A DNA stretch of 64,000 bases. It comes from a virus (Duplodnaviria; Caudoviricetes). A model generated the notes under the pieces. The model saw nothing but the letters and a program-made list of their open reading frames with translations. It did no database searches and was not told where the DNA came from. Shown here piece by piece: positions 36,170 to 62,018 of this stretch. Positions within the stretch are counted from its first letter, which is position 1, and each line of letters opens with the position of its first letter. The translations under genes and the position numbers were made by a program. The stretch is from positions 7,021 to 71,020 of IMG/VR virus record IMGVR_UViG_2974630626_000001, one strand, 5' to 3'.

Positions 36170-36195
36170 AAAACAGGCACACGCCCCCATAGGCT
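36170..36195 (+). promoter_or_regulatory. Middle-type promoter box
   Basis: AAAACAGGCACA-N8-TAGGCT; the box lies inside the inverted repeat GGGGGCGTG/CACGCCCCC. Confidence 0.75.
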
Positions 36196-36232
36196 CGAAA
36201 TATCAAGTACCGCCACAACGAAAGCCGGACCA

Positions 36233-36691
36233 ATGAGGATTACCAAGCGTCAAGGCATCACTGATGCAATCGAACTGGACGACGACCCCACCATCGGGAC
36301 ACCAATCACCATCCACATGCGCAACGGCGCCGCCGTCTCGATCACCGAAACGGACGCCCACGAACTGCTCATTGTGGAAACCAGCCACCGAACCCTCCGG
36401 GTAGCCCCTGGAACGGCCAACAGCCTCACAATCACCACCGTGGACAGCTTCCTTGAGGCAGAGGCCCCCATGATCCCGATTCCCAGCGTTGCCGAGCTCT
36501 GCAAGGTGCCCACGGGATCCAAGCTCTACAGCGTGGCCACCAAGACCGTGTGGACCTGGCACGGCGGCGGACTCGACCAAATCACCAAGGAAGGGTTCAT
36601 TGTCACCAACACCGCCGATGATTCCGGCTTTGCGACCACCCCCGAATTCTGGCAGCGTTGCGCGCCCCTCCTGCTGGCAGCAACGCCATGA
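36233..36691 (+). CDS. Hypothetical protein
   Basis: 152 aa, downstream of a promoter box. Confidence 0.7.
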   Translation: MRITKRQGITDAIELDDDPTIGTPITIHMRNGAAVSITETDAHELLIVETSHRTLRVAPGTANSLTITTVDSFLEAEAPMIPIPSVAELCKVPTGSKLYSVATKTVWTWHGGGLDQITKEGFIVTNTADDSGFATTPEFWQRCAPLLLAATP

Positions 36692-37119
36692 CCGGACTCA
36701 AGGGGTACGACCGCGCCCAAGCCGTCGCCAAGCTCACCGAGGACATAGAGGCCACCAAAATGGTTGCCCGGGAAGCCCCGGACCCGTTCAATAACGTGTG
36801 GCAGGAAGCCCACGTCGGCGTCATACTCGTGCCCCCGGCCCAAGTCATAGCTGAGGCCGTCCTAATCCACCTCCACCCCATCATTGAAGACCAGGAAGCC
36901 CTAGACCGGCTTGGTGTGGGGTCCGTGGTCATTGACAGCTACCGGGCACCCCTCAACGGCGACGTGTACCGTTCCGCACTCAGCAACGGGCGCGTGGTCT
37001 GGTTCCAGGCTGGCCCACAAGGCGAATTCCACACCGTCTGTTTCCCCGCCATGGTCCTCCACAAAAGCACCCTGGCATCCACAACCGAACTCTTTCTGGA
37101 AGGACTCATAAGCGAATGA
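36688..37119 (+). CDS. Hypothetical protein
   Basis: ATGA-coupled, 143 aa. Confidence 0.7.
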   Translation: MTGLKGYDRAQAVAKLTEDIEATKMVAREAPDPFNNVWQEAHVGVILVPPAQVIAEAVLIHLHPIIEDQEALDRLGVGSVVIDSYRAPLNGDVYRSALSNGRVVWFQAGPQGEFHTVCFPAMVLHKSTLASTTELFLEGLISE

Positions 37120-37298
37120 CTTGGGCAACCCACACAGACGGCAGCCCCGTGCACGTTTGGCCGCTGGAAGACACCATCGAACACCACCTTGAGGGCACTG
37201 GCTGCCCATGCGAACCCAAGACCGAGGAAGTGCCCCGCGAGGACGGCACCACAGGCGTCATGATCAGCCACAACGCAATGGACGGACGCCCCGAATGA
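37116..37298 (+). CDS. Small His/Cys protein
   Basis: HVWP..D.IEH....CPC.P...H; coupled at both ends. Confidence 0.7.
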   Translation: MTWATHTDGSPVHVWPLEDTIEHHLEGTGCPCEPKTEEVPREDGTTGVMISHNAMDGRPE

Positions 37299-37774
37299 CT
37301 TACGACCTCACACCCCTGGACGGCATGCGCGAGCGCACCAAGTCCGATGCCAGCCACCTGTTGCGGACCCTCAACGTGGAAGCCAACCCCTTGGCGAAGC
37401 ACTACGCCGTGATGCTGGACGCCAACCGGCTCAACGTGCTGGCCATGTTCGAGAACACCAACCGGGCCGGTACGTTCACCACCCCCGTTATCTCAGTCGA
37501 AAACGCGGAAGCCATTGTGGCCGCCGCCCGGGACGCCCACAACCTGGTCCACCTCGTGGACGGAATCCGCGCCAAATTCGAGCATGAGGCCAAGCAACTG
37601 CAAGCCACGTCAGCGCAGCTATCCCGCGAGGCCATACGCCCCGGACTGTCCAAAGCAGACCGAAAAGCCGCATGCGAGGAATCCGAGCGATACCGGAATT
37701 ACTCCACATGGGCGGACAGCGTTGTGCGCACCCTGGACAAGACCATTGCCGAGCTCCTGAACCCGGAAGGCTGA
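37295..37774 (+). CDS. Hypothetical protein
   Basis: ATGA-coupled, 159 aa. Confidence 0.7.
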   Translation: MTYDLTPLDGMRERTKSDASHLLRTLNVEANPLAKHYAVMLDANRLNVLAMFENTNRAGTFTTPVISVENAEAIVAAARDAHNLVHLVDGIRAKFEHEAKQLQATSAQLSREAIRPGLSKADRKAACEESERYRNYSTWADSVVRTLDKTIAELLNPEG

Positions 37775-37777
37775 ACC

Positions 37778-39004
37778 ATGACACTTGACCACCTCACAGA
37801 CCCCCAAGGCATCAAAGCCACGGCCCGGGCAATCTACGAGGGAGGCCGCGAACACCCCCTTGCTGACCTTGCGCGCCTGATCGACGGGGCACGCCGCGAC
37901 GCCGAATTCCAAGGACTCGCTGAATACGACGTCGCCCGGTGGATAGCCCACGTAATCACCGAGGACCAGAAACTGCGCATTGCCAACAACGACCTGACGG
38001 CACCCCACGGCCAATTCGTGCCCAACCCGCCCAAGCTTGTGGCCGGTGAAGACCTCCCGGAAGGCAGCAACCTGGTGGTCAACCCCAGCATGGGCAAGGT
38101 CAACCCCGCTGTGGGCGTAGTGCCGGACTACCTGAACCCGCCGCCCCCCGTGATCGAACTGGAACACCTCAGCCACAGCATGCGGCAAGCCCTGTTGAAC
38201 CCCCACCCGGGCGAGAACGCCCGGTGGATCATTGACCACATGGCCCCCGGCGCGTTCGACCAACTCAAGGAAATGGCCGTTCCCGAAACCGAGTACCCCA
38301 GCAAGACCGCTGAGGACTTCCTGCAGGGGCGCAAGCTCCACATAACCACCCCCGCCGAACCCAAGCCCGGACTGTTCGACTTCCTCAAAGACCTGCCCAC
38401 ACTGCCCCGGGTGGACCTTGGCGACCAACCCAACATGTTCGAGGCATTCAAGGCCGGCAAGCTCACCTATGGCGAAATGCCCGAACTGCCCAAGTTTGAG
38501 CTTTCAGAGGAAGCCCGGGAAAACCTCAACGAGGCTGGGAAGCGCATTGGGGAAGTCCTCAAGGAAGCCGCCCAAGAGGTCACCCGGCGCACCCGCCAAG
38601 CCCGTGAGGAACAGCTACGCAGCTACTACCAGAACACCGAGCATGAACACGTCTTTGGGCGCGGGTCCAACGGTATTTGCCAGTTGTGTGGGGCTGAATC
38701 GAACAGCCGCCGCGCGAGGGCCAAGCGCCGCGCGATCCACAACGAACAGGCCAAGGCCGCCCGTCAATACCCGCAGCACCAACGCGGCGAAACCGTCACC
38801 GCTACTGGCATCGACGCCGAGGGCGCGCGAGTCGCCAAACGCGGCACTGTCCTGAACCCCGCAGACCACACCGGCTGTGTTGGCGTGGTCTGGGAAGACC
38901 AGGAACCCGGCACGCATTCCCTTGTTCACGTCCACAGCCTCAGCGCCCCCATGTCCAACCTTCACGAGGCACTGAAAGCCAAGGGTGACGGCATTGACGG
39001 CTAA
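37778..39004 (+). CDS. Hypothetical multidomain protein (408 aa)
   Basis: Long ORF with GC3 bias; HEHVF...CQLCG Zn motif and a C-terminal SH3-like segment. Confidence 0.8.
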   Translation: MTLDHLTDPQGIKATARAIYEGGREHPLADLARLIDGARRDAEFQGLAEYDVARWIAHVITEDQKLRIANNDLTAPHGQFVPNPPKLVAGEDLPEGSNLVVNPSMGKVNPAVGVVPDYLNPPPPVIELEHLSHSMRQALLNPHPGENARWIIDHMAPGAFDQLKEMAVPETEYPSKTAEDFLQGRKLHITTPAEPKPGLFDFLKDLPTLPRVDLGDQPNMFEAFKAGKLTYGEMPELPKFELSEEARENLNEAGKRIGEVLKEAAQEVTRRTRQAREEQLRSYYQNTEHEHVFGRGSNGICQLCGAESNSRRARAKRRAIHNEQAKAARQYPQHQRGETVTATGIDAEGARVAKRGTVLNPADHTGCVGVVWEDQEPGTHSLVHVHSLSAPMSNLHEALKAKGDGIDG

Positions 39005-39131
39005 CGTTCAGGAAGCCCTCTATGCGTGGTGCGCGGATTGCTCCATGGGGTCCGAGGTAGGCATATTGCGCGCCGAGGCTGAGGCATGGGCGGACGAACA
39101 CGACGCCCTCAACCATGTGGAGGAACCATGA
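38994..39131 (+). CDS. Small Zn-finger-like protein (45 aa)
   Basis: TTG start; AWCADC...AEAWADEHDALNH; ATGA-coupled to the next gene. Confidence 0.5.
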   Translation: MTANVQEALYAWCADCSMGSEVGILRAEAEAWADEHDALNHVEEP

Positions 39132-39319
39132 TCGTGGCGACTTTCTGGCTGAATGTCGCGTGCTCGCTGGCCTTGTGCGTGGCCGCCGTACTGGCGTTTC
39201 GTGCTGCCTGGTTCAGCCGGAAGCCTAAGCCTGTTTGGGGTGACAAAAGCACCGCAGGGGCTCTCTTGGTGGCTTGCGTCCTTGGTGTCGCCGCGTTCAT
39301 CACAAGGGTGCTTGCATGA
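39128..39319 (+). CDS. Two-TM membrane protein
   Basis: SD GGAGGAA; two hydrophobic helices. Confidence 0.7.
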   Translation: MIVATFWLNVACSLALCVAAVLAFRAAWFSRKPKPVWGDKSTAGALLVACVLGVAAFITRVLA

Positions 39320-39783
39320 CCCAGGAAATCCCGGGGTTGTGGGGCGACGGCGGCGGGGACGCTTTGGGCGACCTTGCCGCCGCCGCGGACCACATCAAGA
39401 ACATGCCTTACGAGGCTTTCGTGCCGTGGGAACCGCCCACCGAACAGGACAAGCTACTTGAGGCCGTGAACGTTCCCCGGGCGTTGCCGGTGTCGTGGGA
39501 CGGCATCCCCATGGAATGGCGCGAATGGCACGCAGAGAACCAAATCACGATATGCCCACCCATCCCCCGCGAGCCGTGCCCACACTGCGGCTTTGACGAC
39601 GCGCCCCGGTCCATGTGCCGGGGCGTCCGGGTGGGTTCCAGGCTGCTGGGGCCACTCTTTGCGTTCCGCTGCCAAGCATGCGGCGGGGACACCGTGCACG
39701 ACCTCCAAGCCGGCGATACGTGGATCCTTGAGCTAGACGACTACGGCCCGGACGGGTCCACAGAGGTTCGGATTATCGACTAA
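39316..39783 (+). CDS. Zinc-ribbon protein
   Basis: CPHC...CQAC; ATGA-coupled. Confidence 0.7.
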   Translation: MTQEIPGLWGDGGGDALGDLAAAADHIKNMPYEAFVPWEPPTEQDKLLEAVNVPRALPVSWDGIPMEWREWHAENQITICPPIPREPCPHCGFDDAPRSMCRGVRVGSRLLGPLFAFRCQACGGDTVHDLQAGDTWILELDDYGPDGSTEVRIID

Positions 39784-39807
39784 AACAGGCACGCCCGGGG
39801 GCAAACT
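39782..39807 (+). promoter_or_regulatory. Middle-type promoter, leaderless geometry
   Basis: AAAACAGGCACG-N8-CAAACT-N6-ATG(39814). Confidence 0.85.
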
Positions 39808-39813
39808 GAGGAT

Positions 39814-40056
39814 ATGACCCTTTCTGACGACTCCCGCCGCATCCCGTTGGCTCAATGCCCGGAATGCCCCAAGCTCATGCCAACCGGCCAAGCCAGGTGC
39901 CAAGCCCATGACGTAAAAGCCGAGGTGGAGAAAACCACGGTGCGCAACCGATACCGGGCATACTGCGAAGCCCACCAAGACGGCTGGAACGGCACCAAAC
40001 GAACCGCCGAAAAATGGGCCACCGAACACAACAACGAACACCACAAGGACGCCTGA
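39814..40056 (+). CDS. Zn-binding small protein
   Basis: CPEC...C..H and C..H...AEKWATEHNNEHH. Confidence 0.75.
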   Translation: MTLSDDSRRIPLAQCPECPKLMPTGQARCQAHDVKAEVEKTTVRNRYRAYCEAHQDGWNGTKRTAEKWATEHNNEHHKDA

Positions 40057-40058
40057 CC

Positions 40059-40394
40059 ATGACCAGCGAACGGCCCCCGATAGGGGCAAAGGTCACTATC
40101 AATTCACCCGGCCATTTCCGGCACGGCGCCACCGGGGTGGTGAGCTACCACGGCACCATGCTGGGAACCATTGGCGTGACCGTCCGCGGCATCCAGTACG
40201 GGCTAATGCCGGGAGAGGTCACCCTGGTGGCTAAACCCGTCTGCCGGAACTGTGGGCGCCCCATCACCAGGAACACCCAGCCCCAGCACAGGTGGGCGCG
40301 GCGCATGCCCAAACGGGAATGGCTGCACAACGCCACCGATTTCGACCCCAAGAAACCAATGGATTGCTTCGACCCAGAACCCAAGGAAGACTAG
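40059..40394 (+). CDS. KOW/SH3-like plus Zn-ribbon protein
   Basis: IGAKVTI..PGHFRHGATGVV; CRNCG...W.H. Confidence 0.65.
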   Translation: MTSERPPIGAKVTINSPGHFRHGATGVVSYHGTMLGTIGVTVRGIQYGLMPGEVTLVAKPVCRNCGRPITRNTQPQHRWARRMPKREWLHNATDFDPKKPMDCFDPEPKED

Positions 40395-40396
40395 CC

Positions 40397-40912
40397 ATGC
40401 CTGAATTCGCCACAGCACGCCAACGCATCAACGAGTACCTACGGCAGCGCAAGGGCCAAAAAGGTCTTGACCGCGAGGTGATCCACAACAGCTTCACGGA
40501 CCCCAACGCCGCCGTTGCACCCCTCCTGATTGCGGACCTTGAGGAAGTCATGCAGACCTCAACAGGGCTGGACTCATGGACCTATTTCTATGCGTTCCAC
40601 GCCGCTTTTTCCGTTCTCAGAGTCCATGAGGCATGGACCATGGGACCAGGGGAAGACCTCAACGGAACTGGCAAGTTCCTTTCCCACAAAGTCACCTGTG
40701 TGGGCTGCCCCGCCGGCTGGCACACCTACGCGCTGAGTGCTGAGGACGCGCGCGAGCTATTCACCGGCCACCAAGCCAACGTTGTGGCCACCCGTTTGCG
40801 GGACAGTTTCCAGAACCCAGACAAGGCAGAGGAACAACAGCTAATCCTTGACCGGGTATGGCATGAGGGCTGGGACGCCAACGACGGCGACACAAGCCCC
40901 TACCAGCCATGA
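40397..40912 (+). CDS. Hypothetical protein
   Basis: 171 aa in operon. Confidence 0.65.
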   Translation: MPEFATARQRINEYLRQRKGQKGLDREVIHNSFTDPNAAVAPLLIADLEEVMQTSTGLDSWTYFYAFHAAFSVLRVHEAWTMGPGEDLNGTGKFLSHKVTCVGCPAGWHTYALSAEDARELFTGHQANVVATRLRDSFQNPDKAEEQQLILDRVWHEGWDANDGDTSPYQP

Positions 40913-41100
40913 GCCGCTACCTGGTCTGTGACGTTTGCGGCGGCAAGCTCCACTTGCCCACCACCCCGGCCCTTGCCGAGGGCTGGCAACGCCACAGCGT
41001 AGGCAGCGGCAACACGCTGGAAATCCGTTACACATGCCCCAAATGCAACCCCGCCAAGATCAAAGCCATTATGGAGGCTCGCAATGTCCGCCGTTCTTGA
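40909..41100 (+). CDS. Zinc-ribbon protein
   Basis: CDVCG...CPKC. Confidence 0.7.
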   Translation: MSRYLVCDVCGGKLHLPTTPALAEGWQRHSVGSGNTLEIRYTCPKCNPAKIKAIMEARNVRRS

Positions 41101-41944
41101 AGTCCTGAAAGCCCACCCCGATTGGAATTACGGCCCCGCCCCAGAGGGCAGAAATGGGGTGGCCAAATGCGCTGGCCCCGGCTGCGAATGGGAAGCCGTC
41201 AGCCCTCCACTTACGACCCGGGTAGAGGACTTGCACCGCGCCCACGTGGCTGAGGAAATCGCGCGGCTTGACGCACCTGTTGAGCTCAAAACCGAGCCGC
41301 TGAACACCTACAGCACGCAGCGCGAGGAAATGCTGCGCGGGTTCAACGCTGACGTGGCCGGCGGCAAGCTCACGCTGGTGCATGACAAGGGTCTTCACCG
41401 CTATCTGACGTTCCGGCCCCGCAGCGGTAATTTCTGCTGGTTCGATATCATCACCAGCCCCGGGCAACTCACCATTAGGGGCGACATGGGCGACTACATG
41501 TTCGCCCGGGAACCGGACATGCTCCGGGATTTCTTCCACCGGAACGTGAACCCGTCCTATTGGGCCGAAAAGGTGCTTGCCCAGGACGTGAACAGCCCCG
41601 TGCGTGAATACAGCCTCGATAGGTACAAGGCAAGCGTGCTGCATGACTTCTGGCACGCCCGGGAGGACTACACCCCCGCCGACGCCAAAGAGCTATGGCG
41701 CGAAATCCGCACCAGCGGCCCCCTGAACGACTACGCCGACTATCTGCACCCCAACGGCGCCATAAACGAACTTGAAACATTCAGTTCCGAGGTGGCCAAA
41801 GATTTCCGTTTCGACACGCACGGATATGACGATTTCGAGGACTACGGACACCACTTCCTTTGGTGCTGCCACGCCGTCCTGTTCGCCGCCCGGGCATATC
41901 GTGAACATGACAAAGCCAAGACCCTGGAAGGGGCCGAATCATGA
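41084..41944 (+). CDS. Conserved-looking phage hypothetical protein (286 aa)
   Basis: HDKGLHRYL.F...WFDIIT.PG.L.I.GD.GDY.F...VNP.YWAEK motif run. Confidence 0.8.
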   Translation: MSAVLEVLKAHPDWNYGPAPEGRNGVAKCAGPGCEWEAVSPPLTTRVEDLHRAHVAEEIARLDAPVELKTEPLNTYSTQREEMLRGFNADVAGGKLTLVHDKGLHRYLTFRPRSGNFCWFDIITSPGQLTIRGDMGDYMFAREPDMLRDFFHRNVNPSYWAEKVLAQDVNSPVREYSLDRYKASVLHDFWHAREDYTPADAKELWREIRTSGPLNDYADYLHPNGAINELETFSSEVAKDFRFDTHGYDDFEDYGHHFLWCCHAVLFAARAYREHDKAKTLEGAES

Positions 41945-42360
41945 CCATTGCACCCATCACCGCCCAAGAAATCGGCAACGTGACCGTGACCCGTGAGGGC
42001 AGCACGTTGCGAGCCACCACGGACCTGCTCAAGGTCACTGCCAACATGTCCGATGATCCGGCGACGCTGCGAACCAGGGCCACCATGGTGCTTGCGCTGG
42101 CCACCTACATTGACAGCCCACCGGCCCCGCCGTTCGAGTTCCCGCAGAACCACGCGGCCGTGCTGCTCGCTGACGGCCCCATGCAAGACGGCGTGGCGCC
42201 CGTGGCCCGATTCACCCGCATTGAAGACCGGGGCTGGTTCTCAGCAACCTACGGCTGGCAAACCGAGGCGTTCCTGTTGAAGGACTTCACGAATCTGCGG
42301 GTGATATCCGAGGGCATCCCCGGAACCGCCCCGGACACGATCCCGGACCCCACCGAATAA
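41941..42360 (+). CDS. Hypothetical protein
   Basis: ATGA-coupled, 139 aa. Confidence 0.7.
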   Translation: MTIAPITAQEIGNVTVTREGSTLRATTDLLKVTANMSDDPATLRTRATMVLALATYIDSPPAPPFEFPQNHAAVLLADGPMQDGVAPVARFTRIEDRGWFSATYGWQTEAFLLKDFTNLRVISEGIPGTAPDTIPDPTE

Positions 42361-42364
42361 CCCA

Positions 42365-42413
42365 CAACGCCCCGTGACGCATCCCACACTGTCACGGGGC
42401 GTTGCCATATCGT
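42365..42413 (+). promoter_or_regulatory. 14-bp perfect hairpin whose loop holds a late-type box
   Basis: CAACGCCCCGTGAC/GTCACGGGGCGTTG; CATCCCACAC(42380)-N18-TATCGT. Confidence 0.55.
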
Positions 42414-42442
42414 CAGCCCACCAGCGAACAAAGAGGTTGACC

Positions 42443-42664
42443 ATGGCAAAGACGCCGCACCGAGTTATACACCTGAAACAGTGCTATGACTGTTCCACCC
42501 TGGTGGAGGAACCCTGCAGGGGCGCATTCGAGATAGCCCTATGCGCCAAACACCGGGATTGCGTTGGCTGCCCAATTCTGAGATTCCGACAAAAACAGGC
42601 ACGCGTGCTGACACTGTTGGAATATGACAACCAAGCAGAACCCGCCACAGCCCAAGCCGCGTAA
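42443..42664 (+). CDS. Cys-rich small protein
   Basis: SD AAGAGG; CYDC...C...C..H.DC.GC; overlaps the next gene by 41 nt. Confidence 0.45.
   Translation: MAKTPHRVIHLKQCYDCSTLVEEPCRGAFEIALCAKHRDCVGCPILRFRQKQARVLTLLEYDNQAEPATAQAA
42592..42617 (+). promoter_or_regulatory. Middle-type promoter, leaderless geometry
   Basis: AAAACAGGCACG-N8-CACTGT-N6-ATG(42624). Confidence 0.85.
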
Positions 42665-43067
42665 CCCCCGCGCCGAACTGATCAACCGCGCCCGTACCGC
42701 CGGCGATCCCAACTGGTCCTTGTCCATAGCCCCAGAGGTAAAAGACCTGATCAACGCCCTTGCCGAACAGGTGGCCATTTCCATGCCACCCCCGCAAGTG
42801 GTCATTCCAGAGGACAAGCCCACGGATCCGGTGGTCACGCTCGCACGCAGCGCCAAGAACTACGTGGACTATCGCCGGGGAAAGCTTGAGGACACCCTCA
42901 AGAACCTGGAACGCTCCATTGAGGACTTGCGCCGGTACCCGGGCGCTGACGGGGTGAACATGCTCACCCGCGCCGCTGAGGCAGCCAGCGCCGCCACTCA
43001 ACTGCAAGACGCCCTAGAGCATGCCGAACAATTCGCCTACCTCGTGGGAGAACGCACCAATGACTAA
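42624..43067 (+). CDS. Hypothetical coiled-coil protein
   Basis: 147 aa; ATG 20 nt after the box. Confidence 0.75.
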   Translation: MTTKQNPPQPKPRNPRAELINRARTAGDPNWSLSIAPEVKDLINALAEQVAISMPPPQVVIPEDKPTDPVVTLARSAKNYVDYRRGKLEDTLKNLERSIEDLRRYPGADGVNMLTRAAEAASAATQLQDALEHAEQFAYLVGERTND

Positions 43068-44824: not shown

Positions 44825-44828
44825 ACAC

Positions 44829-47660: not shown

Positions 47661-48972
47661 CCAACTCGCTACCAACGGCGGCAGCCAGCACCCGGACAAG
47701 CGCAAAGCCGGTGGCCACGGCCCCACCCTTGCTGACGAAGTGGAACACAAGATTCTGCCCACCCCACGAGGCAGCGACGGGCTGGCCGGACCTGACCCCC
47801 TGGAACGCCCCGAATACCGGGACGACGTGGCCACCCGCGTGAAACGACACCTCACCCCCGTGGAACCCGTGCCGGAAGAATCCCTTTTGCTCACCCCGGT
47901 GGCCATTGAGGGCACGAAACCCAGCAACGTCATGGGCGTGGACCGTCGCCTTTCCACCGGGCAGCTGTTCCTCACCAATCAGATTGTCAGCCTCATGGGG
48001 CTGGACCCGTCCGAGGAAGCCGCCAAGCTGCTGCCGACGCCCACGACTCAGGAAACGAAGTCGGGGCCGTCTCAGGCGAGCCGCAACACGCCCCCGCTCA
48101 ACTCAGTGGTTACGGACTTACTGCCAACCCCCATTGCATCCGATGGGAAGGGCACGGGGCCGGCTGACCTCAACCGGGAAACCGTCCAGTTGCGAGCTAT
48201 CACCGGGCTGCTGCCCACGCCCATGTGTGGGGACGCCAAACAGGCGCGCAACAGCACCGCCAACCGCAACAAAATACCGCCCACCGGGGTGCACGCCGGC
48301 GACACCCTCACTGACGTGCTGGTGCCCAACGGCAATACCCCGATCCTGCCCACACCCAAGGGCAGCGACGGCGAAAAGGGCGGCCCCAACCAGCGCGGAA
48401 GCTCCGGGGATTACGCCCTACCGGCCATTGGCCACCTCCTGCCAACCCCGGCAGCCAACGACAGTGGCAACACCCCGGAAGAACACCTGCGGAAGAAACC
48501 CGGGCGCACCCAAGTGACCAGCCTCCAGGTCATAGCCGACCATGGCCTCATTGAAACCGGGGGCAAGATTCTGCCCACCCCCACTGTGGGGAACGCGACG
48601 GGCGGGAACGCGCAACGCGGCGGTGACAGGTCCGATGAAAAGCTGTTGCCCGGGCTGGCCGTCGAAATGAGCGAGGAACCCGGCGCGATCAACTGGGGCG
48701 CCTATGCCCCGGCCATTGAGCGGTGGGAACGCGTCCTCGGTTCCCCGGCCCCAGCCCCCACGATCCCCACCGGACGCGACGGCGCGCAACGCCTCAACCC
48801 CGCCTTTGTGGAATGGATGATGGGCTTGGACTCCGGGCACGTCACTGGGGTGGAAATCCCCCGTTCTGCCATGCTCAAAGCCCTTGGCAACGGCGTTTGC
48901 CCCCAGCAAGCCGAAACCGCCATTCATCATCTGCTGTGGGGATTCGTGCGAGCATACGGACTGGCCGCATGA
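47425..48972 (+). CDS. C5-cytosine methyltransferase second part (variable region + motifs IX-X), overlapping frame
   Basis: RLNPAFVEWMMGL and MLKALGNGVCPQQA; nine xLPTP repeats. Start uncertain (47359, TTG 47425, or ATG 47485 with SD GGGAGGGG). Confidence 0.85.
   Translation: MKPVFLASWNSERGLWEGNQMDLFSGLSEPYSETWPMQGMTRNGVAYALPTWAPHMGVSGFSGSESDATSSTLLKTPTSQLATNGGSQHPDKRKAGGHGPTLADEVEHKILPTPRGSDGLAGPDPLERPEYRDDVATRVKRHLTPVEPVPEESLLLTPVAIEGTKPSNVMGVDRRLSTGQLFLTNQIVSLMGLDPSEEAAKLLPTPTTQETKSGPSQASRNTPPLNSVVTDLLPTPIASDGKGTGPADLNRETVQLRAITGLLPTPMCGDAKQARNSTANRNKIPPTGVHAGDTLTDVLVPNGNTPILPTPKGSDGEKGGPNQRGSSGDYALPAIGHLLPTPAANDSGNTPEEHLRKKPGRTQVTSLQVIADHGLIETGGKILPTPTVGNATGGNAQRGGDRSDEKLLPGLAVEMSEEPGAINWGAYAPAIERWERVLGSPAPAPTIPTGRDGAQRLNPAFVEWMMGLDSGHVTGVEIPRSAMLKALGNGVCPQQAETAIHHLLWGFVRAYGLAA
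47641..48660 (+). repeat. Nine tandem [L/I]LPTP modules
   Basis: Starts at 47641, 47752, 47884, 48028, 48118, 48208, 48343, 48436, 48568. Confidence 0.8.
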
Positions 48973-50831: not shown

Positions 50832-50851
50832 GCCACAACGAAAGGACCACC

Positions 50852-51469
50852 ATGGCATTGAGCGAGACATACACGGACGGGGCAGCCGCCCCCGAATGGG
50901 TCAAGGAAGGCGGCACCGTAGCCGTCTGCCAGCGCACCCACTACGGCGTATCGCATTCCGTGAACAAAGGCTATGTGGAGCGACTGACCAAAACCCAAGT
51001 GATCCTGAACGACGGGCGCCGGTTCAGTCTCAAGAACGGGTTACGCCAAGTAGGTGACTCGAAACGCGACCCTTACGGACCCGGGCCGTTGTTCCTGGCT
51101 GATTGGGACAGCACCGCCGTGAAGGAAGCTTTGCGGGAACAGTTCCTGCGGAACACCGCCGATCAGATCGGGGCGAAAGCCCGGGCGTTCGCCTCCGAAC
51201 CAGACGGCAAGAAAGCCGTTGAGCTCATAGACCTGCTTAGCCGGTGGGCAAAGCGGGACGGCATGGAGGTGCCCAACGAACTGGCCGCCGAACTCAAGGA
51301 AGCCCGGGCGAAGCTCAACCCGGACCCGGACATGGTGGACGCCATGGCCGCTGACCTGGCCGAGGCGTTCAACTTCCCAAGCAAGCGCTACGCACGCCAA
51401 GAAGTCCGCTTTGTGCTGGCCCTAGCGAGAGGGGAAGACCCAAATGGCAGTGACGTGCGAATCCTGTAA
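50852..51469 (+). CDS. Hypothetical protein (205 aa)
   Basis: SD GAAAGGA; VERLTKTQV motif. Confidence 0.8.
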   Translation: MALSETYTDGAAAPEWVKEGGTVAVCQRTHYGVSHSVNKGYVERLTKTQVILNDGRRFSLKNGLRQVGDSKRDPYGPGPLFLADWDSTAVKEALREQFLRNTADQIGAKARAFASEPDGKKAVELIDLLSRWAKRDGMEVPNELAAELKEARAKLNPDPDMVDAMAADLAEAFNFPSKRYARQEVRFVLALARGEDPNGSDVRIL

Positions 51470-54916: not shown

Positions 54917-55125
54917 TCAAGCTCTTTCGCCGCCGCCGCTACGTCGTCCAGGCGTTCCACCCCTCCGACTATGGCCCCTTTGGGCAGGTCCGGTTCCATG
55001 AGCTCTACCAGGTGCAAGACCACATGTCCATGGTTCGCCGCAGCTACCCCCACACTGAGTTCCTGATTTACGACAGGGTAAACCGCTACACCGTGGGCGA
55101 CTACCCCGCCAAGAATGACCGCTGA
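54913..55125 (+). CDS. Hypothetical protein
   Basis: ATGA-coupled, 70 aa. Confidence 0.6.
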   Translation: MIKLFRRRRYVVQAFHPSDYGPFGQVRFHELYQVQDHMSMVRRSYPHTEFLIYDRVNRYTVGDYPAKNDR

Positions 55126-55474: not shown

Positions 55475-56049
55475 GCAAGCCACTGGTTCAGTACGCCGAA
55501 TTCACCAACGGCAACAGGGCGCTGGCAATCGACGCGAAAGCCCCCAACGGCGTCCGCATCAAGATCAAATCCACCAAGTCCGGCAGCGCCCTTGGCGTGT
55601 TCCAGGTGCCCCACGCTGACCTCCCAGCGGTCATGTTTGAGCTCACGGGCGGCCACCCCACGGACAAGGAAGTGGACGACGCCCGGGAAATCGTGGACGG
55701 GTTCATTGACGAAACCAACACCCCGCAGAACGTCGCCGCCCTCACCCGTCGCCTGTTGCTGGCCCTCCACATCAACAATCAGGCCGTTGCGGCGGCAACC
55801 GCTGCCGGGGCGCCCATGGACCATGACGCCACTGGCTGCATGGGCTGCGCAATCACCGAGGAAGCCCCGGAAGTGCTGCAAGACCCGGACTATGACCCCA
55901 CCGCCACGGAACTGGATGGGCTGATTGACCCCAACGAGGTGCCGGACACTGACCCCAACATTGTGGCCGCGCTGGCACGGGAGAACGCACACTTGCGCCA
56001 AAAGCTGGCCGCCATTGAAGCCCTCACCAACCCGGAAGTGACGCTGTAA
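55471..56049 (+). CDS. Hypothetical protein
   Basis: SD GAAAGG; ATGA-coupled; 192 aa. Confidence 0.7.
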   Translation: MSKPLVQYAEFTNGNRALAIDAKAPNGVRIKIKSTKSGSALGVFQVPHADLPAVMFELTGGHPTDKEVDDAREIVDGFIDETNTPQNVAALTRRLLLALHINNQAVAAATAAGAPMDHDATGCMGCAITEEAPEVLQDPDYDPTATELDGLIDPNEVPDTDPNIVAALARENAHLRQKLAAIEALTNPEVTL

Positions 56050-56297
56050 TGCCAGTTGCAGGACGCCCCCAGCCCCTTGCCAAGCCCCGTGGGAACTGCA
56101 TCAACCCCGAATGCGCGCACCCCATCAAGTCAGGCGGCAACCTGACAGCCGAAACCGAGGGCATGCGCCGCGCCAACCGTGAGGGCGTGTGTTTTGTCTG
56201 CAAGAAAGCCGGATTTGGGGAATTCCAGTGGACCCCGGAACTGATGGACGAAACCATCCGGCACGCCATGGGGGAACTGTTCCATGATGTTGCATAA
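56049..56297 (+). CDS. Zn-binding small protein
   Basis: C...C...C..C; TAATG coupling. Confidence 0.65.
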   Translation: MPVAGRPQPLAKPRGNCINPECAHPIKSGGNLTAETEGMRRANREGVCFVCKKAGFGEFQWTPELMDETIRHAMGELFHDVA

Positions 56298-56694
56298 CCC
56301 CGCCCTCACCATCATGGTGACCATCCCCATGACCAAGGCGCTCAACATGAATAAGGGGATGCATTGGTCAAAAGAGAGTCCCATTATCAAAGAGCTACGC
56401 GAGCAAGGCGGCTGGCTCATGCGCGAAAAGCACAAGGGCCGGAATCCATACTTTGACCGCTGCCACGTCAACGCTTGGGTGTACTTCCCGGACGAATCCC
56501 GACGCCGGGACACCATGAATTGGCTACCCACAGCCAAAGCACTGCAAGACGGCTTTGTTGACGGGAAGCTTGCCCCGGACGATAACGAGCGGTTCGTAAT
56601 TGGCCCACACTTGTGGCCCACCTATGAGCTATCCGGCATCAAGGGCATGTTGAAGCTGAGGTTTGAAATCACCCACCTTGAGCCCATCCAATGA
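56284..56694 (+). CDS. rusA: RusA-like Holliday junction resolvase
   Basis: LNMN...HW, RRRDTMN..PTAKALQDG.V....PDD. Confidence 0.75.
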   Translation: MMLHNPALTIMVTIPMTKALNMNKGMHWSKESPIIKELREQGGWLMREKHKGRNPYFDRCHVNAWVYFPDESRRRDTMNWLPTAKALQDGFVDGKLAPDDNERFVIGPHLWPTYELSGIKGMLKLRFEITHLEPIQ

Positions 56695-56888
56695 GTGACC
56701 ACATAGCCGCTATCCGCGCTGACCTGGACCGCGAGCGTTTGCGCTTGCTGGAACAGGTCAGCGCGGAATGCCACCAGACCGAACACCCCCAGAACAGGGC
56801 AGAACGCGCCGCCGGCAACCACCGCGCGCGGATCCTTGTTCGCGAAAACGCAGCGTTCTACGCCCAAAGAAAGGCCAAAACCCCATGA
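56691..56888 (+). CDS. Hypothetical protein
   Basis: ATGA-coupled at both ends. Confidence 0.6.
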   Translation: MSDHIAAIRADLDRERLRLLEQVSAECHQTEHPQNRAERAAGNHRARILVRENAAFYAQRKAKTP

Positions 56889-57268
56889 GCATGCACTACA
56901 GCCGCCACCAGCGCCGCCACGACCGCAACAAAGGGCTGATGATTGGCACTTTCCTGCTCGTGGCCTTGGTGATTGTGGGCGTCGCCGCCGTCGTCCAGGG
57001 CGCGAGCAAGCAAACCCAGACATGCACCGTGGGCAGCAAGTACATGACCACCGACGTGCACGACGGCAAGAGTGTGCGCGTCTACCAGGTGGAAACCAAG
57101 GACTGTGGGGTGCTGCGGGTGGAGGACAACGCCCTGCAGGGTGTCTTCAACTCCGCTGACCTGTTCGCGGCCCTCAACGAGGGGCAGCGCTACCGCTTCA
57201 CCACAGTGGGGTGGCGGGTGCCGTTCCTCTCCGCATTCCCCACCATCGTGAAAGTGGAAAGTGCCTAA
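56885..57268 (+). CDS. Membrane-anchored beta-barrel (OB-fold-like) protein
   Basis: Single TM then CTV..K...Y.VET.DCGV..VED...GQRY.F...GWR.PF.S.FP.I. Confidence 0.75.
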   Translation: MSMHYSRHQRRHDRNKGLMIGTFLLVALVIVGVAAVVQGASKQTQTCTVGSKYMTTDVHDGKSVRVYQVETKDCGVLRVEDNALQGVFNSADLFAALNEGQRYRFTTVGWRVPFLSAFPTIVKVESA

Positions 57269-57722
57269 GCCCGGGCCGGTGGAACGATTCTGGGCGAAGG
57301 TAGACCAGCGCGAGGACCACGAGTGCTGGCCATGGCGTGCCGGTATCGCCAAGGAAACCGGGTACGGCATCTTTCACCCCGCCACGGACGTGACCAAGCT
57401 GGCCCACCGCTTCGCCTATGAGCTCGCGAACGGCCCCATACCGGCTGGCCTTGTCCTGGACCACACTTGCCACAACGAGGCCGTGTGCATCGGCAAGTGT
57501 GTGCACCGCGCCTGTGTGAACCCAGCCCACACGGTCCCCCGGACCAGGCAAGACAACACCAACTTGGCGCCGTTCGCCAACATCAAGAAAACCCATTGCC
57601 CACGAGGGCATGAGTACACCCCAGAGAACACTTACCGGGCACCGTCCCGGCCCAAGTCCCGGCGCTGCAAACGGTGCTGGAAGTATCACGGGCGGACAGC
57701 CCAACAGAAAGAGGCAGCATAG
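57261..57722 (+). CDS. HNH (His-Me finger) endonuclease
   Basis: RFWAKV..CWPW, GYG, AHR.AYEL, LDHTC...CVNPAH...[10 protein letters not shown]. Confidence 0.9.
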
Positions 57723-58264
57723 TGGCCGGCGAGACAACCATTACCGTTATCGGCAACCTGACCAATGACCCGGAATTGCGTTTTACCCCGTCCGGGTCCG
57801 CCGTCGCCAACTTCACGATTGCCAGCACTCCGCGGACGTTCGATAAGCAGTCCAATGAGTGGAAGGACGGGGAAACCCTCTTTCTGCGTGCGAGCATTTG
57901 GCGGGACGCTGCCGAGAACGTGGCCGAGTCCCTGACCAAGGGAATGCGCGTGATCGTGTCCGGGCGCCTCAAGTCCCGGAGCTACGAAACCAAAGAGGGC
58001 GAAAAGCGAACCGTCATAGAGCTTGAGGTGGACGAAATTGGCCCCTCTCTGAGGTACGCCCAAGCCAAGGTGAACAGGACCCAGCGCAACGGCGGCGGGT
58101 TCGGCGGCAACAACGCGTCACAAGGCGGGAACCAGGGCGGCGGCGGATACAATCAGGGGGGCGGTTTCGGTGGCGGTGCAAATTCCGCGCCGGCCGATGA
58201 TCCGTGGGCCACCCAGGCTAGCAATGGTTGGGCGAATGGCCCGGACAGTGAGCCGCCCTTTTAG
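57722..58264 (+). CDS. ssb: Single-stranded DNA-binding protein
   Basis: [30 protein letters not shown]; Gly-rich linker; acidic EPPF tail. Confidence 0.95.
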
Positions 58265-58411
58265 CTTCCAGTTGGTCCGGTTAGGTGCGTTTGGGTGCGA
58301 GCGGGAATAGTACACCGTGAGTTCTCCAAGATGATGTAGACGTTGCCAGCGATCCGGTTAGCCAACAGGTGTGGTGGAGGACGTAGGGCGTTACGTTGGA
58401 AGCCAAACGGG

Positions 58412-58446
58412 AAAGCCCCGGTGCACGCTCGCGCCGGGGCTTTTTT
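58412..58446 (+). terminator. Intrinsic terminator
   Basis: AAAGCCCCGGTGC/GCGCCGGGGCTTTTTT. Confidence 0.85.
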
Positions 58447-58468
58447 GTGCCCTCTTTTGGAAATGTGG

Positions 58469-58498
58469 TTGCACTTTCGTGTAGCGAGGTGCTACATT
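58469..58498 (+). promoter_or_regulatory. sigA-like promoter with palindromic operator
   Basis: TTGCAC-N18-TACATT; operator TGTAGCGAGGTGCTACA at 58480-58496; near twin of 24226-24255. Confidence 0.8.
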
Positions 58499-58538
58499 CT
58501 TTCTAACGCAGTAACCGCCACAGCAAAGGACCAGGATC

Positions 58539-59645
58539 ATGACTTACGAAGTGACCAACCGCGACGTTTACCAAGGCGCGACAATGACCAACACCGAGAC
58601 GGGCCACAGCATCAAGGCTGCCGACTATGTGACCATTGGCAAGTCCAAAAACGAGTGGTTCGTTAGCGCAGTGCTGCATAACGGCTTTGTGGAGCTTGAA
58701 CGCCAAGCCCCGGGACGCACACGCGGAATCACCCGCCGCCGCATGAACATTGACGCCCTTACTCGCGTCTCTGACGCCCCCGCCGCCGCTGAGGAAGCCG
58801 CGCCCTCTGCGGAACGCTTGCGCTACCTCTATGACCTCATTCAGTCCCGTTCGGGCAAGTCCGTGGACGCTACCCCCGCCGAGTGGGAGGCATTGAAGAC
58901 GTTCAACCCGAACGCTGAGGAATCGGACGACTTCACCCCTTGCAACGGCGCTGGCCTTGCGTGCACGAACCCCCGCCACGCCCATGAGGCTGGGGACGAA
59001 GACGACCGCACCACTGACGGCGCGCTGCTTTGCCGCGAGTGTGGCGCACCCGCCCATTGGGATGAAGCTGGGGATTACCAGCATGACGACCCCGCCGCGC
59101 CGGGTTGCTTCCTGATCCCCGCCAAAACGGATGGGTGGCCCACTGCCGCTGATCTTGTGGCCCTCATGCGCAACCTGATTGACAGCGGCGAGGCTGTGGA
59201 CGCTGAGGACGCCGCAGAGTGCGCCGACGAGTTGTTCCCGGAAGTCCCGGACGGCGACGCCGAACGCGCGGCATTCCACGCCCGGGCGGAAGCAATCATG
59301 AATGAGGCTTTGGCGGCCATGCGGGAGGCATCGGTGGACACCCCCACGGCCTTGCTGCACCCCAAGCTTGACGTGTTCGACGTGAAGGCCGCCAAAGAGG
59401 GCACCAGCGAGGTGCTGGAAGTGATCACGGTCAAGGGTGATATCAACCGGGCGCGTTCGGTAGCCGCCATGCTGGGTTGCAAGCATGGGTTCGGGCCACT
59501 GCACATTGACTACCAAACCAGCACCCTGGAATGGCACGCCGGGAACGGCGGCGGCGTTGAGATTGAGGACATGGACCCGGACGACCCCTACCAGTGGGGG
59601 CCGTGGGTCCGTGAAATTGCCTACGAAATGGAACTGAGGGACTGA
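58539..59645 (+). CDS. Acidic multidomain early protein (368 aa)
   Basis: SD AAAGGA/AGGA; single-gene unit between a promoter and a terminator; central Cys/His cluster. Confidence 0.8.
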   Translation: MTYEVTNRDVYQGATMTNTETGHSIKAADYVTIGKSKNEWFVSAVLHNGFVELERQAPGRTRGITRRRMNIDALTRVSDAPAAAEEAAPSAERLRYLYDLIQSRSGKSVDATPAEWEALKTFNPNAEESDDFTPCNGAGLACTNPRHAHEAGDEDDRTTDGALLCRECGAPAHWDEAGDYQHDDPAAPGCFLIPAKTDGWPTAADLVALMRNLIDSGEAVDAEDAAECADELFPEVPDGDAERAAFHARAEAIMNEALAAMREASVDTPTALLHPKLDVFDVKAAKEGTSEVLEVITVKGDINRARSVAAMLGCKHGFGPLHIDYQTSTLEWHAGNGGGVEIEDMDPDDPYQWGPWVREIAYEMELRD

Positions 59646-59671
59646 ATCAAGTACCCGTCAAGTAAGCAGAT

Positions 59672-59696
59672 AGCCACCCTACGGGGTGGCTTTTTT
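59672..59696 (+). terminator. Intrinsic terminator
   Basis: AGCCACCC-TACG-GGGTGGCT followed by a T-run. Confidence 0.85.
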
Positions 59697-59708
59697 GCTG
59701 CCCGGGGA

Positions 59709-59734
59709 AAAACAAGCACGCACCACCACAGAAT
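59709..59734 (+). promoter_or_regulatory. Middle-type promoter, leaderless geometry
   Basis: AAAACAAGCACG-N8-CAGAAT-N6-ATG(59741). Confidence 0.8.
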
Positions 59735-59740
59735 TGGGTT

Positions 59741-59977
59741 ATGAACGCTTACGAGTACAAGACCGTCAAGGTGCCGAGGTCAGGCAAGGCGCGCACCAAG
59801 GCGCTGAATGCCTACGGCGCGCAAGGCTGGGAACTCACGAACACCACCGACGCGTGGCAACACACTGTCACCGTGTCTTTGCGGCGTCCGCTGGCGGCTG
59901 AGGCCGTCGTGAAGCCGAAACCGCCAAGCTTGCTTGGTCTGATCTTCCAAGCACTCGCAAACCGCACCGCCAAGTAA
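59741..59977 (+). CDS. DUF4177-like small protein
   Basis: YEYKTV...LNAYGAQGWEL. Confidence 0.7.
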   Translation: MNAYEYKTVKVPRSGKARTKALNAYGAQGWELTNTTDAWQHTVTVSLRRPLAAEAVVKPKPPSLLGLIFQALANRTAK

Positions 59978-59988
59978 AGGAACCCACT

Positions 59989-61095
59989 TTGAAGCTCACT
60001 ATTGATTCCAGCGCATTGAACGAGTCCGTGGCGTTCGCTGCCCGGGCCGTGAACCCACGCCATGCCCAGCCGATCCTCACGGGCATTTGGCTGGAAGCTA
60101 CGGGCGGTGTCCTGACCGTCCGGGGGTTCGATCAGGTCAACTCGAATGCCGTCCAGGTGGCCGCCGATATTGAGGAAGACGGCACCGCGCTGCTGCCGGG
60201 TGCCGTGCTGGCCAATATCCTCAAGACCTTGCCGAACAGCAAGCCCCTGGACCTCAGCATTGACGACAGGGCCACGTTGAAGGTGGGGCGCGCGAAGTTC
60301 TCGACCCAGAAAATGGACGCTTCGCAGTATCCGCAAATGCCGGGGCTGCCCAAGCGTCTGGGGTCCGTGGACAGCAACCTATTCGCGGGGGCCGTCGCCC
60401 AGGTCCAGCACGCTGCCGGGAAGAACACCACCCCGCCCGTGTTGAATGGCATCAAGGTGGAGCTCAGGGGCAACGTGTTGAGCCTATTGGCCACTGACCG
60501 CTACCGCATGGCCTACGCCGAATTGCCGATTGACCGATACGAGGACAGTCAGGACGACATGGACTTCCTTGTGGCCCCGGAGGTGCTGACCGGCGCCGCC
60601 CGGGCGAACAGCGGCAAGCTGGACGTGTTGGGTTCGGACCAGCGCATGGGCTTTGTGTCCGCCACGAGGGCCACCACGTCCAACGTCATGGGCGGGGACT
60701 TCCCTAACGTCCGGGCACTGTTCCCGTCCGCTGCGCAGCTTGTCTATGAGTGCACCGTCGACACCGCGGACCTGTTGTCCGCCGTCACGCGCGCCGCCGT
60801 CGTCATTGAGGGGCAAGACCCGGTTCGTTTGAACTTCCGTCAGGGCGAGGTTGTGGTGGACGCCGGCGGGTTGGATTCCAACGCGGGTGAGGAAGCGCTG
60901 GAAGCGTTCCACACATTCGAGGAAGACCAAGCGGTTGGGTTCAATGCGGCGTTCCTTGCCGAGGCGTTGCGCGCCCTGACCGCCGATCAGGTGGTGTTCG
61001 GATTCCAGGGCGGGGTAAACGTCAGGCCGGTGCTGATCCGGGAAAAGGGCGGCACGTTCAACCAGCAACTCATTATGCCTATTCGCCTCACGTAG
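59989..61095 (+). CDS. dnaN: DNA polymerase III beta sliding clamp homologue
   Basis: PILTGI, LLATDRYRMA, GDFPNV, VGFNAAFLAEAL, QQLIMPIRL; 368 aa; SD AAAGGAA with TTG start. Confidence 0.9.
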   Translation: MKLTIDSSALNESVAFAARAVNPRHAQPILTGIWLEATGGVLTVRGFDQVNSNAVQVAADIEEDGTALLPGAVLANILKTLPNSKPLDLSIDDRATLKVGRAKFSTQKMDASQYPQMPGLPKRLGSVDSNLFAGAVAQVQHAAGKNTTPPVLNGIKVELRGNVLSLLATDRYRMAYAELPIDRYEDSQDDMDFLVAPEVLTGAARANSGKLDVLGSDQRMGFVSATRATTSNVMGGDFPNVRALFPSAAQLVYECTVDTADLLSAVTRAAVVIEGQDPVRLNFRQGEVVVDAGGLDSNAGEEALEAFHTFEEDQAVGFNAAFLAEALRALTADQVVFGFQGGVNVRPVLIREKGGTFNQQLIMPIRLT

Positions 61096-61139
61096 TGCTG
61101 TGTTAATCTAAAGCTCTCCTTTCGAGTGGGGTTGCTGGG

Positions 61140-61171
61140 AAAAGCCCGGGTCTGAGTCGCCCGGGCTTTTT
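61140..61171 (+). terminator. Intrinsic terminator
   Basis: AAAAGCCCGGG/CCCGGGCTTTTT. Confidence 0.85.
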
Positions 61172-61179
61172 CGCGCCCA

Positions 61180-61205
61180 AAAACAGGCACGGCCACCCAT
61201 ACGGT
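61180..61205 (+). promoter_or_regulatory. Middle-type promoter (leadered)
   Basis: AAAACAGGCACG-N8-TACGGT. Confidence 0.8.
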
Positions 61206-61233
61206 TGGGAATGTAACCAACGAAAGGCTAGAC

Positions 61234-61650
61234 ATGATCCCCGTAGATCAGGACATTTTGCACACCGAGGAAACGGTGGGTAACTGCTGGCAAGCGTGCG
61301 TTGCGTCGCTGCTGGACTTGCCCCTTGACCAGGTGCCCCATTTCATCCTGCATGAGGACTGGTGGGAGGCCACCAAAGCGTTCGTTGCCGTGCACAAGCC
61401 CGGGTGGACCATGGAGCACTACGACGTCACGTTCCCGGTCTACGTCCCCCATGACCACGAGGGTGCCCCGCAGCACGTCATTGGGTCCGGCCAATCACCC
61501 CGGGGCGACTTCCTGCATGCGGCCATTGTGTCCGCCGTGACAGGCGAGCTTGTGCACGACCCGCACCCTTCCCGGGCCGGGTTCGCCGGGGACATGGACA
61601 GCATGTTCGTGCTGATCCCCAAGCCCGAAACCGTGGAGGCTGCCAAGTGA
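61234..61650 (+). CDS. Hypothetical protein (GNCWQACVASLL family)
   Basis: SD GAAAGG; G.SPRG...HA....HDPHPSR.G. Confidence 0.8.
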   Translation: MIPVDQDILHTEETVGNCWQACVASLLDLPLDQVPHFILHEDWWEATKAFVAVHKPGWTMEHYDVTFPVYVPHDHEGAPQHVIGSGQSPRGDFLHAAIVSAVTGELVHDPHPSRAGFAGDMDSMFVLIPKPETVEAAK

Positions 61651-61994
61651 GCTACGACATTGACGCGCAAGTACCGGCGCGCGAGGGCTGCTGTGCATGC
61701 CACGGCAGCGAATGGGTGGAGTTGGGGAACATGACCAGCAACGTTGCCCCGCTGTGGCGCCACGCAGCCCCGCAGACCGATGGGCTGGCCGATATCGACG
61801 GCAAGACGGGGGGCGAGGTGGCCGCGTATCTGCGCACGTCCCTGGAACACATGAAAGCCCACCGGGCAGAGTATGAGCCGCTGGTGCGCGGCGGCGGCTC
61901 GTGGGGCACCTACGAACACGCGGTGGAGTACATGACCACGGTGGTGGAGTTTGCCGAGGCGAACCCCGCCGCGCGGTTCCGTGTTGGCCGGTAA
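61647..61994 (+). CDS. Hypothetical protein
   Basis: GTGA-coupled; NMTSNV..LW...WGTYE. Confidence 0.75.
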   Translation: MSYDIDAQVPAREGCCACHGSEWVELGNMTSNVAPLWRHAAPQTDGLADIDGKTGGEVAAYLRTSLEHMKAHRAEYEPLVRGGGSWGTYEHAVEYMTTVVEFAEANPAARFRVGR

Positions 61995-62018
61995 AACAGG
62001 CACATGCCATGTGACGCT
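61993..62018 (+). promoter_or_regulatory. Middle-type promoter (leadered)
   Basis: AAAACAGGCACA-N8-GACGCT. Confidence 0.75.

Follow-up and report, generated by a model that had tools for sequence, protein, structure and literature searches.

A 12-bp box, AAAACAGGCACG, recurs at fixed distances ahead of a -10-like hexamer in the genome of an Arthrobacter phage, of which a stretch of 64,000 nucleotides (nt; hereafter the window) was analysed, covering bases 7021-71020 of the 71,020-bp virus record IMGVR_UViG_2974630626_000001. We propose, with a probability of about 0.7, that these repeats are a promoter class private to the Klausavirus lineage, in which the box replaces the -35 element and from which leaderless transcripts are predicted in 8 of 13 orthologous groups of sites. 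The 71-kb genome is that of a Cluster AR myophage of the genus Klausavirus. Its nearest relatives, with ~80% nucleotide identity across roughly 50–66% of a 10-kb query, are Arthrobacter Cluster AR myophages of that genus (PrincessTrina, Colucci, ArV1, Lymara, DrYang and about fifteen others). Nearly all genes are directed rightward, in the order virion genes, a block that encodes a repair ATPase, RecE/RecT and a replication initiator, and a long run with methyltransferase, helicase, single-stranded DNA-binding protein and sliding clamp genes, which also holds many open reading frames (ORFs) of unassigned function.

Repeated box and its geometry

The box occurs eleven times in the window, always on the + strand (Table 1). 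Seven copies are exact, three carry one mismatch and one carries two. Exactly 8 nt past the box, all eleven are followed by a NANNNT hexamer (A at position 2, T at position 6), and at seven of them an ATG stands exactly 6 nt past the hexamer. A preliminary description of this DNA had listed these copies with their coordinates, strand, spacing, hexamers and seven ATGs, and every item was found in its place. If the hexamer is set at -12 to -7, the box spans -32 to -21.

With at most two mismatches allowed, the 12-mer alone has 22 matches (7.06 expected), a number reached in 0 of 100 shuffles. The full pattern, box+N8+NANNNT, has 12 matches at the same tolerance against 0.48 expected and a shuffle maximum of 3; the twelfth of these is an intragenic variant with two mismatches (P10 in Table 1). 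A further copy with the same geometry and an ATG (P1) lies outside the window, 772 nt ahead of it. The whole genome holds 13 sites, each oriented with its genes. That three copies lie inside coding sequence, as first described, is only roughly right: by crude gene calls, several copies, among them those at P3, P5, P9 and P13, lie against or overlap with the preceding gene at its 3' end or stop codon, that at P4 lies in a weak ORF, and P10 is the one site truly internal to a gene.

Table 1 Predicted promoter sites, upstream terminators and other mapped features. Coordinates refer to the window unless marked "genome"; aa, amino acids; z, z-score.
Feature	Coordinates	Strand	Box	Hexamer	Triplet at +1	Remarks
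P1	genome 6248	+	box		ATG	class geometry; outside window
P2	36170..36204	+	AAAACAGGCACA	TAGGCT	ATC	8 nt from box to hexamer, then 6 nt to +1
P3	39782..39816	+	exact	CAAACT	ATG (39814)	80-aa ORF
P4	42592..42626	+	exact	CACTGT	ATG (42624)	147-aa ORF
P5	44797..44831	+	exact	GAGAGT	ATG (44829)	63-aa ORF
P6	46822..46856	+	exact	GAGAAT	ATG (46854)	C5 DNA methyltransferase
P7	49058..49092	+	exact	CAGAAT	ATG (49090)	N6/N4 DNA methyltransferase
P8	50798..50832	+	GAAACAGGCACC	TAGGCT	AAG	
P9	52759..52793	+	exact	TAGTGT	ATG (52791)	
P10	55264..55298	+	AAATCCGGCACG (variant)	TAGGTT	ATA	within 119-aa gene
P11	59709..59743	+	AAAACAAGCACG	CAGAAT	ATG (59741)	
P12	61180..61214	+	exact	TACGGT	TGT	
P13	61993..62027	+	AAAACAGGCACA	GACGCT	AAG	
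Intrinsic terminator upstream of P6	46692..46728	+				-28.2 kcal/mol, z -4.6; ~90 nt before box
Intrinsic terminator upstream of P7	49020..49052	+				-26.4 kcal/mol, z -4.0; ends 6 nt before box
Intrinsic terminator upstream of P11	59672..59697	+				-16.9 kcal/mol, z -4.3; ends 12 nt before box
Intrinsic terminator upstream of P12	61140..61173	+				-24.8 kcal/mol, z -3.3; ends 7 nt before box
84-aa helix-turn-helix protein	29980..30234	+				box-free early block; candidate factor, not tied to box
GACAC-N5-6-CGTCCCACA	genome 2797, 6647, 8409, 12354, 14667, 24207, 31554 (window 1389, 5334, 7647, 17187, 24534)					

Conservation across relatives

This genome was compared with five sequenced relatives, six genomes in all; L084, a syntenic 16.5-kb metagenomic contig that is ~70% identical, was scored separately. 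Each of the five relatives has 11–12 boxes (at most one mismatch) on the forward strand and 0 on the reverse. When box and hexamer were both required, 75 sites were found over the six genomes, with 0 on the minus strand, and these form the 13 orthologous groups P1–P13. The scan of the full genome and its relatives thereby extends the fixed spacing, first described in the window, to all six genomes and all 13 groups.

Over orthologous sites, pairwise identity is 94.6% in the box and 98.5% at A-11/T-7, compared with 62% in the 8-nt spacer, 67% at the other four hexamer positions, 56% in the 20 nt upstream and 52% in the 20 nt downstream. Since the box, A-11/T-7 and the distances are held while the surroundings drift, selection acts on the box, the two hexamer bases and their spacing, and not on the neighbourhood. 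L084 carries six to seven boxes on a single strand, and at two of these the spacer is 9 nt long. At one Colucci site the hexamer has slipped by one base and the distance from box to ATG is still 20 nt.

Promoter-like features and predicted start sites

All 75 sites have A-11 and T-7 by construction, as they were selected on these bases. Positions that played no part in the selection are conserved as well: G-5/G-4, A-3, a pyrimidine at -1 (71/75), A+1 (66/75) and T+2 (59/75). These start-context bases hold also in groups where +1 is no start codon, and that the pyrimidine -1/A+1 context is kept even at leadered copies is as expected for the context of a transcription start. The 75 aligned sites show no -35 information at -38 to -34 and no TGn extension, so that the -35 contact is missing. 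The inner hexamer positions are loosely conserved, often with no T at -12, and in this the sites resemble weak sigmaA sites. The G-rich discriminator and the pyrimidine/purine start context match mycobacterial reports, and in Actinobacteria a TANNNT element 7–12 nt upstream of the start, with no -35 element, is found and leaderless mRNAs are common (PMC3898074).

In eight groups (P1, P3–P7, P9 and P11) the ATG at +1 opens an ORF. At most sites it is the first possible start following an in-frame stop, and it is the annotated start in relatives, for example in PrincessTrina gp6, gp65, gp72, gp77, gp83, gp90 and gp104. This geometry (hexamer, 6 nt, first in-frame ATG) fits a leaderless message with its predicted start at the A of the ATG. 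Comparison with the six related genomes thus supports what the preliminary description had proposed from one of them, namely a lineage-private promoter class with fixed geometry, a sigmaA-like -10, no -35 and predicted leaderless starts. In Colucci (NC_042000), the annotated starts at 47961 (gp72) and 50162 (gp78) differ from the ATGs at box+32, at 48030 and 50117; both start codons are likely mis-called, the box+32 ATG being backed by the promoter geometry and by the other genomes.

Four groups (P2, P8, P12 and P13) have instead a 22–32-nt leader with a GAAAGG-type ribosome site 7–11 nt before the ATG. P2 has a predicted start at ~36202, a 31-nt leader and a GAAAG Shine-Dalgarno sequence before the ATG at 36233. 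P8 and P12 each have a 22-nt leader with GAAAGG, ahead of ATGs at 50852 and 61234 respectively, and P13 has a 32-nt leader and an ATG at 62057. A leader sequence, CCACAACGAAAGG, is common to several genes, ahead of their start codons (window 36219-36230, 50833-50845, 61217-61227 and, on the minus strand, 24190-24205). It stands behind box-type and sigmaA-type promoters alike and is a conserved translation-initiation region.

Comparison with known promoter systems

Promoters in which a box replaces the -35 element are already known as a kind. What is new here is a phage-private box at the actinobacterial -26 position, with another sequence and with mostly leaderless predicted transcripts. The PafBC regulon motif, tGTCgg(N10)tA(N3)T, contains a "-26 element" at -28 to -23 in place of the -35; in what has been termed sigma adaptation, PafBC positions itself between domain 4 of sigmaA and the DNA (PMC8635444). 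SiwR promoters also depend on the -26 region (PMC10693628). The PafBC ("RecA-NDp") and SiwR promoters share with the phage sites a sigmaA-type -10, the absence of a -35, an element at about -26 and the same host phylum. The core of the phage box, CAGGCACG, covers -28 to -21 and ends 8 nt before the hexamer, whereas the PafBC element covers -28 to -23 and is followed by N10. The phage box is unrelated in sequence, with no GTC on either strand, and extends 4 nt further upstream as an A-tract. The PafBC activator has the architecture winged helix-turn-helix-WYL-WCX, whereas the phage genome gave no WYL match (six-frame search, E <= 1). A match to the PafBC/RecA-NDp consensus, TGTCGGTG-N8-CATCGT, is present inside the holin gene (window 22255-22276) and is kept in all six genomes, probably as a coincidence of coding conservation.

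As in the middle promoters of phage T4, a phage-specific box takes the place of the -35 before a host-type -10, and genes for DNA metabolism and accessory functions are served. The MotA box of T4, (a/t)(a/t)(a/t)TGCTTtA, is centred at -30, ~12–13 bp from the -10, and T4 middle transcripts are generally leadered, unlike the predicted leaderless majority here. The phage box has another sequence and its centre is at ~-26.5. The likeness to MotA drawn in the preliminary description therefore stands as a functional analogy, while the MotA-box sequence, the -30 position and the MotA/AsiA genes are all absent.

Leaderless promoters of Actinobacteria and Deinococcus-Thermus resemble the phage sites in having a -10 element 6–7 nt before the start codon, which places the 5' end of the mRNA at the A of the ATG, and a pyrimidine at -1 (PMC3898074; PMC12340547). 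They have no shared upstream box, whereas the phage sites carry one 12-mer at a fixed distance. The Streptomyces phage phiC31 reportedly has a conserved family of repeated, non-consensus early promoters that are activated in lytic growth (Ingham et al. 1993), which may be a further parallel and is taken here as a lead only. A published description of the box motif was not found in the searchable literature, where the only texts with the motif string are unrelated primer lists; promoters are not mentioned in Klyczek 2017, and a literature search for "Klausavirus" returned no papers.

Proposed mechanism and search for the box-binding factor

We suggest that host RNA polymerase with its principal sigma factor would read the weak -10 (A-11, T-7), after which the G-rich discriminator follows, and that a sequence-specific protein bound to the 12-bp box at -32 to -21 would replace the missing -35 contact. 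Transcription would begin 7 nt past the hexamer. In 8 of 13 groups this base is the A of the ATG, and in four a 22–32-nt leader with its GAAAGG-type ribosome site would follow. The box-binding factor would most likely be phage-encoded and made from the box-free early block, in which case the box class would come on after the sigmaA-consensus promoters. The box-free early block covers window 28111-36146, together with 22631-24493 on the minus strand. As a tentative refinement, which we regard as possible and clearly less probable than the promoter reading itself, the factor may be a small phage protein, without known relatives, in the role of a viral "sigma adaptor", bound to the box at about -26 and docked on domain 4 of the principal sigma factor. 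If this is true, such an adaptor would redirect unmodified host polymerase to ~13 leaderless phage promoters, and the PafBC mechanism would have its first viral counterpart.

In order to identify the factor, the phage genome was searched in six frames. No match at E <= 1 was found to sigma region 2 (PF04542), to region 4_2 (PF08281) or to WYL; no WhiB protein was found, and MotA (MotCF, PF09158) and AsiA (PF09010) gave no match. Scans of the early and large ORFs against Pfam and PHROGs returned only an 84-aa helix-turn-helix (HTH) protein, an 81-aa DNA-binding protein, a 47–56-aa protein and a weak zinc-ribbon protein. The 84-aa HTH protein is confined to Cluster AR phages. Its AlphaFold model is confident and shows a long helix followed by a small HTH, and a Foldseek search of this model against the PDB gave nothing at E <= 0.001. 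The other candidates are the 81-aa protein, which lies beside dyad operators (see below), and the zinc-ribbon-like protein of 86 aa. The 47–56-aa protein, encoded downstream of P13, matched only a PHROG of unknown function and is annotated as an HTH protein in relatives. Every relative, L084 included, keeps the same box, so that co-variation of factor and box cannot single out a candidate. More distant phages were sought through the sliding clamp; a search at the level of the locus found none, and the next relatives by tblastn, temperate Richie-like phages, lack the box.

The full box pattern was also searched, as an exact match, in 185,579 prokaryote species genomes, in which 84 single matches were found, the number expected by chance, with at most one per genome and none in Micrococcaceae. 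An 11-mer version gave 8 matches in 401 Actinomycetota genomes, and its reversed control gave 10. As there is no bacterial enrichment and no known factor gene in the phage, a phage-encoded reader of the box is favoured.

Two further candidates were tried and rejected. GGCACG in the box resembles a sigma54 -24 element, but no TTGC is found 4–5 nt downstream, and Actinobacteria, to our knowledge, lack sigma54. A promoter for a phage RNA polymerase was discarded because the genome has no ORF of sufficient size for such an enzyme and a variable spacer separates the conserved parts.

Alternative explanations

Several points weigh against the promoter reading or the phage-encoded factor that we attach to it. 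No box-binding protein was identified in the searches above, and two other early ORFs gave no informative match, the ESM Atlas included. If the long helix of the 84-aa HTH model dimerises, as we infer, this protein would suit a dyad site better than the asymmetric box. The box might instead be read by a host factor whose regulon is small or degenerate, the genome scans not having been aimed at Arthrobacter by name. The G-rich hexamer before the ATG could also be a very close Shine-Dalgarno sequence on read-through transcripts. Finally, no transcript 5'-end or expression data for Cluster AR phages were found in the searchable literature.

The promoter reading would be unchanged if the phage had borrowed a host protein, for example a -26-type activator of the WYL family that is activated by single-stranded DNA. 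The sites share their geometry with PafBC and SiwR promoters, the phage has no recognisable activator, sigma or WYL gene of its own, and early RecE/RecT could generate the single-stranded DNA. However, the GTC triplet, a strictly conserved part of PafBC sites, is missing from the box, and the full pattern never rises above a single chance copy in bacterial genomes, with none in Micrococcaceae; we hold such borrowing to be unlikely. A divergent sigma factor, either phage-encoded and unrecognisable or an alternative sigma of the host, might equally read box and hexamer together. Profile searches can miss phage sigma factors, no family match was obtained for many ORFs of 150–400 aa, and AAAAC resembles the AAC core of extracytoplasmic function (ECF) -35 elements. 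The six-frame searches for Sigma70_r2 and r4_2 were nevertheless empty at E <= 1. Moreover, the hexamer interior is as loose as that of the sigmaA TANNNT, where alternative sigmas are usually strict at -10, and the 14-bp spacer from AAAACA to the hexamer is below the 16–19 bp usual for promoters of the sigma70 family. Taken together, this makes a divergent sigma quite unlikely in our judgement.

The remaining explanations do without an activating box. The stoperators of Cluster A mycobacteriophages are asymmetric, multi-copy sites of 13–14 bp, co-oriented with transcription and near gene ends; they serve temperate phages as repressor sites and keep no set distance from a -10 or a start codon. 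The phage boxes are likewise asymmetric, ~12 bp long, present in 12–13 copies per genome with 0 on the minus strand, co-oriented with transcription and near gene boundaries, and could be repressor operators set on constitutive promoters that consist of a -10 only. Against this, the complete annotations of PrincessTrina and Colucci contain no integrase, no ParAB and no gene named repressor, unlike the stoperator phages; the base-exact distance to the -10 and the start codon would be unneeded for a block of elongation; and neither a -35 nor an extended -10 is there to make the promoters strong unaided. We consider repressor operators very improbable. Least of all do we expect the element to work at the RNA level, where it would be a signal for the processing or translation of read-through transcripts. 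The box would be transcribed on read-through from upstream operons, and at P2 it is part of a stable hairpin, but inspection of the flanking sequences made no stem of the box evident at the other sites, the invariant A2/T6 and the pyrimidine -1/A+1 are signatures of DNA promoters, and terminators directly upstream would remove the read-through RNA. An RNA element is extremely improbable on this evidence.

Implications

Under the promoter reading, the sites give a predicted transcription map, accurate to the base, for a phage group with about twenty sequenced SEA-PHAGES isolates, most of whose non-structural genes have no assigned function. Box+32 would mark the start of about eight genes per genome, confirming or correcting annotated start codons. 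The sites may also provide compact promoter parts, orthogonal by prediction, for Arthrobacter and other Actinobacteria. Sigma adaptation has been proposed to be widespread in Actinobacteria (PMC8635444), and this virus offers 13 near-identical sites at the promoter position used by sigma adaptation, as well as a small set of early ORFs in which to look for the factor.

Features of individual sites

P1 serves a single gene, annotated as an "immunity protein" in PrincessTrina, which ends in its own terminator; promoter, gene and terminator are a self-contained cassette within the virion operon. The box of P2 occupies the loop and 3' arm of a GC-rich hairpin (36157-36188, -24.6 kcal/mol) that has no T run. 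The arms of this hairpin change together in relatives, and it stands at the border of the early block and the first box-driven operon. At P3 the box begins within the stop codon of the upstream gene, at P4 an in-frame stop lies 15 nt upstream, and at P5 the promoter and the 3' end of the preceding gene overlap. The genes behind P9 are a 127-aa ORF, annotated in relatives as a PD-(D/E)XK endonuclease, and a helicase.

At the gene-internal P10, third codon positions are invariant at 11 of 12 inside the 35-nt element and at 48 of 108 in the flanks (Fisher p = 0.0017). This constraint makes P10 a probable internal promoter, less certain than the other sites. P11 is followed by genes for a DUF4177 protein and the beta sliding clamp. 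The sliding clamp (window 59989-61095) has ~63% protein identity to other Cluster AR clamps, against ~80% identity of the surrounding DNA, and the P11 promoter ahead of it is conserved. The clamp looks, by these comparisons, like a mosaic gene replacement behind a fixed promoter.

Other promoter-like signals

The genome also has ordinary sigmaA-type promoters that include a -35 element. Those of the form TTGCAT/TTGCAC-18-TACATT are found at 24228 (minus strand) and 58480, overlapping a 17-bp dyad, TGTAGCGNGGTGCTACA. With at most three mismatches, five copies of this dyad were found against 0.47 expected: 24228-24244 (-), 24499-24515 (+), 58480-58496 (+) and weaker ones at 24203 and 36087. It adjoins the gene for the 81-aa DNA-binding protein and is probably an operator on early promoters. 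TTGGCA-18-TATAGT at 27898, ahead of the box-free early block, is the best sigma70-like promoter of the region. A strong terminator-like hairpin with a T run lies ~45 nt past it (window 27898-28015), and the two could give a short transcript or form an attenuator ahead of the early block.

The several co-existing promoter types fit a temporal programme without proving one. They are what hints at the "middle" timing that the preliminary description gave to the box class. GACAC-N5-6-CGTCCCACA recurs among the virion genes of all six genomes, at sites that are orthologous between them (Table 1), and is possibly a third, late promoter class. A copy of the GACAC type at window 42380 looks like the loop of a hairpin instead.

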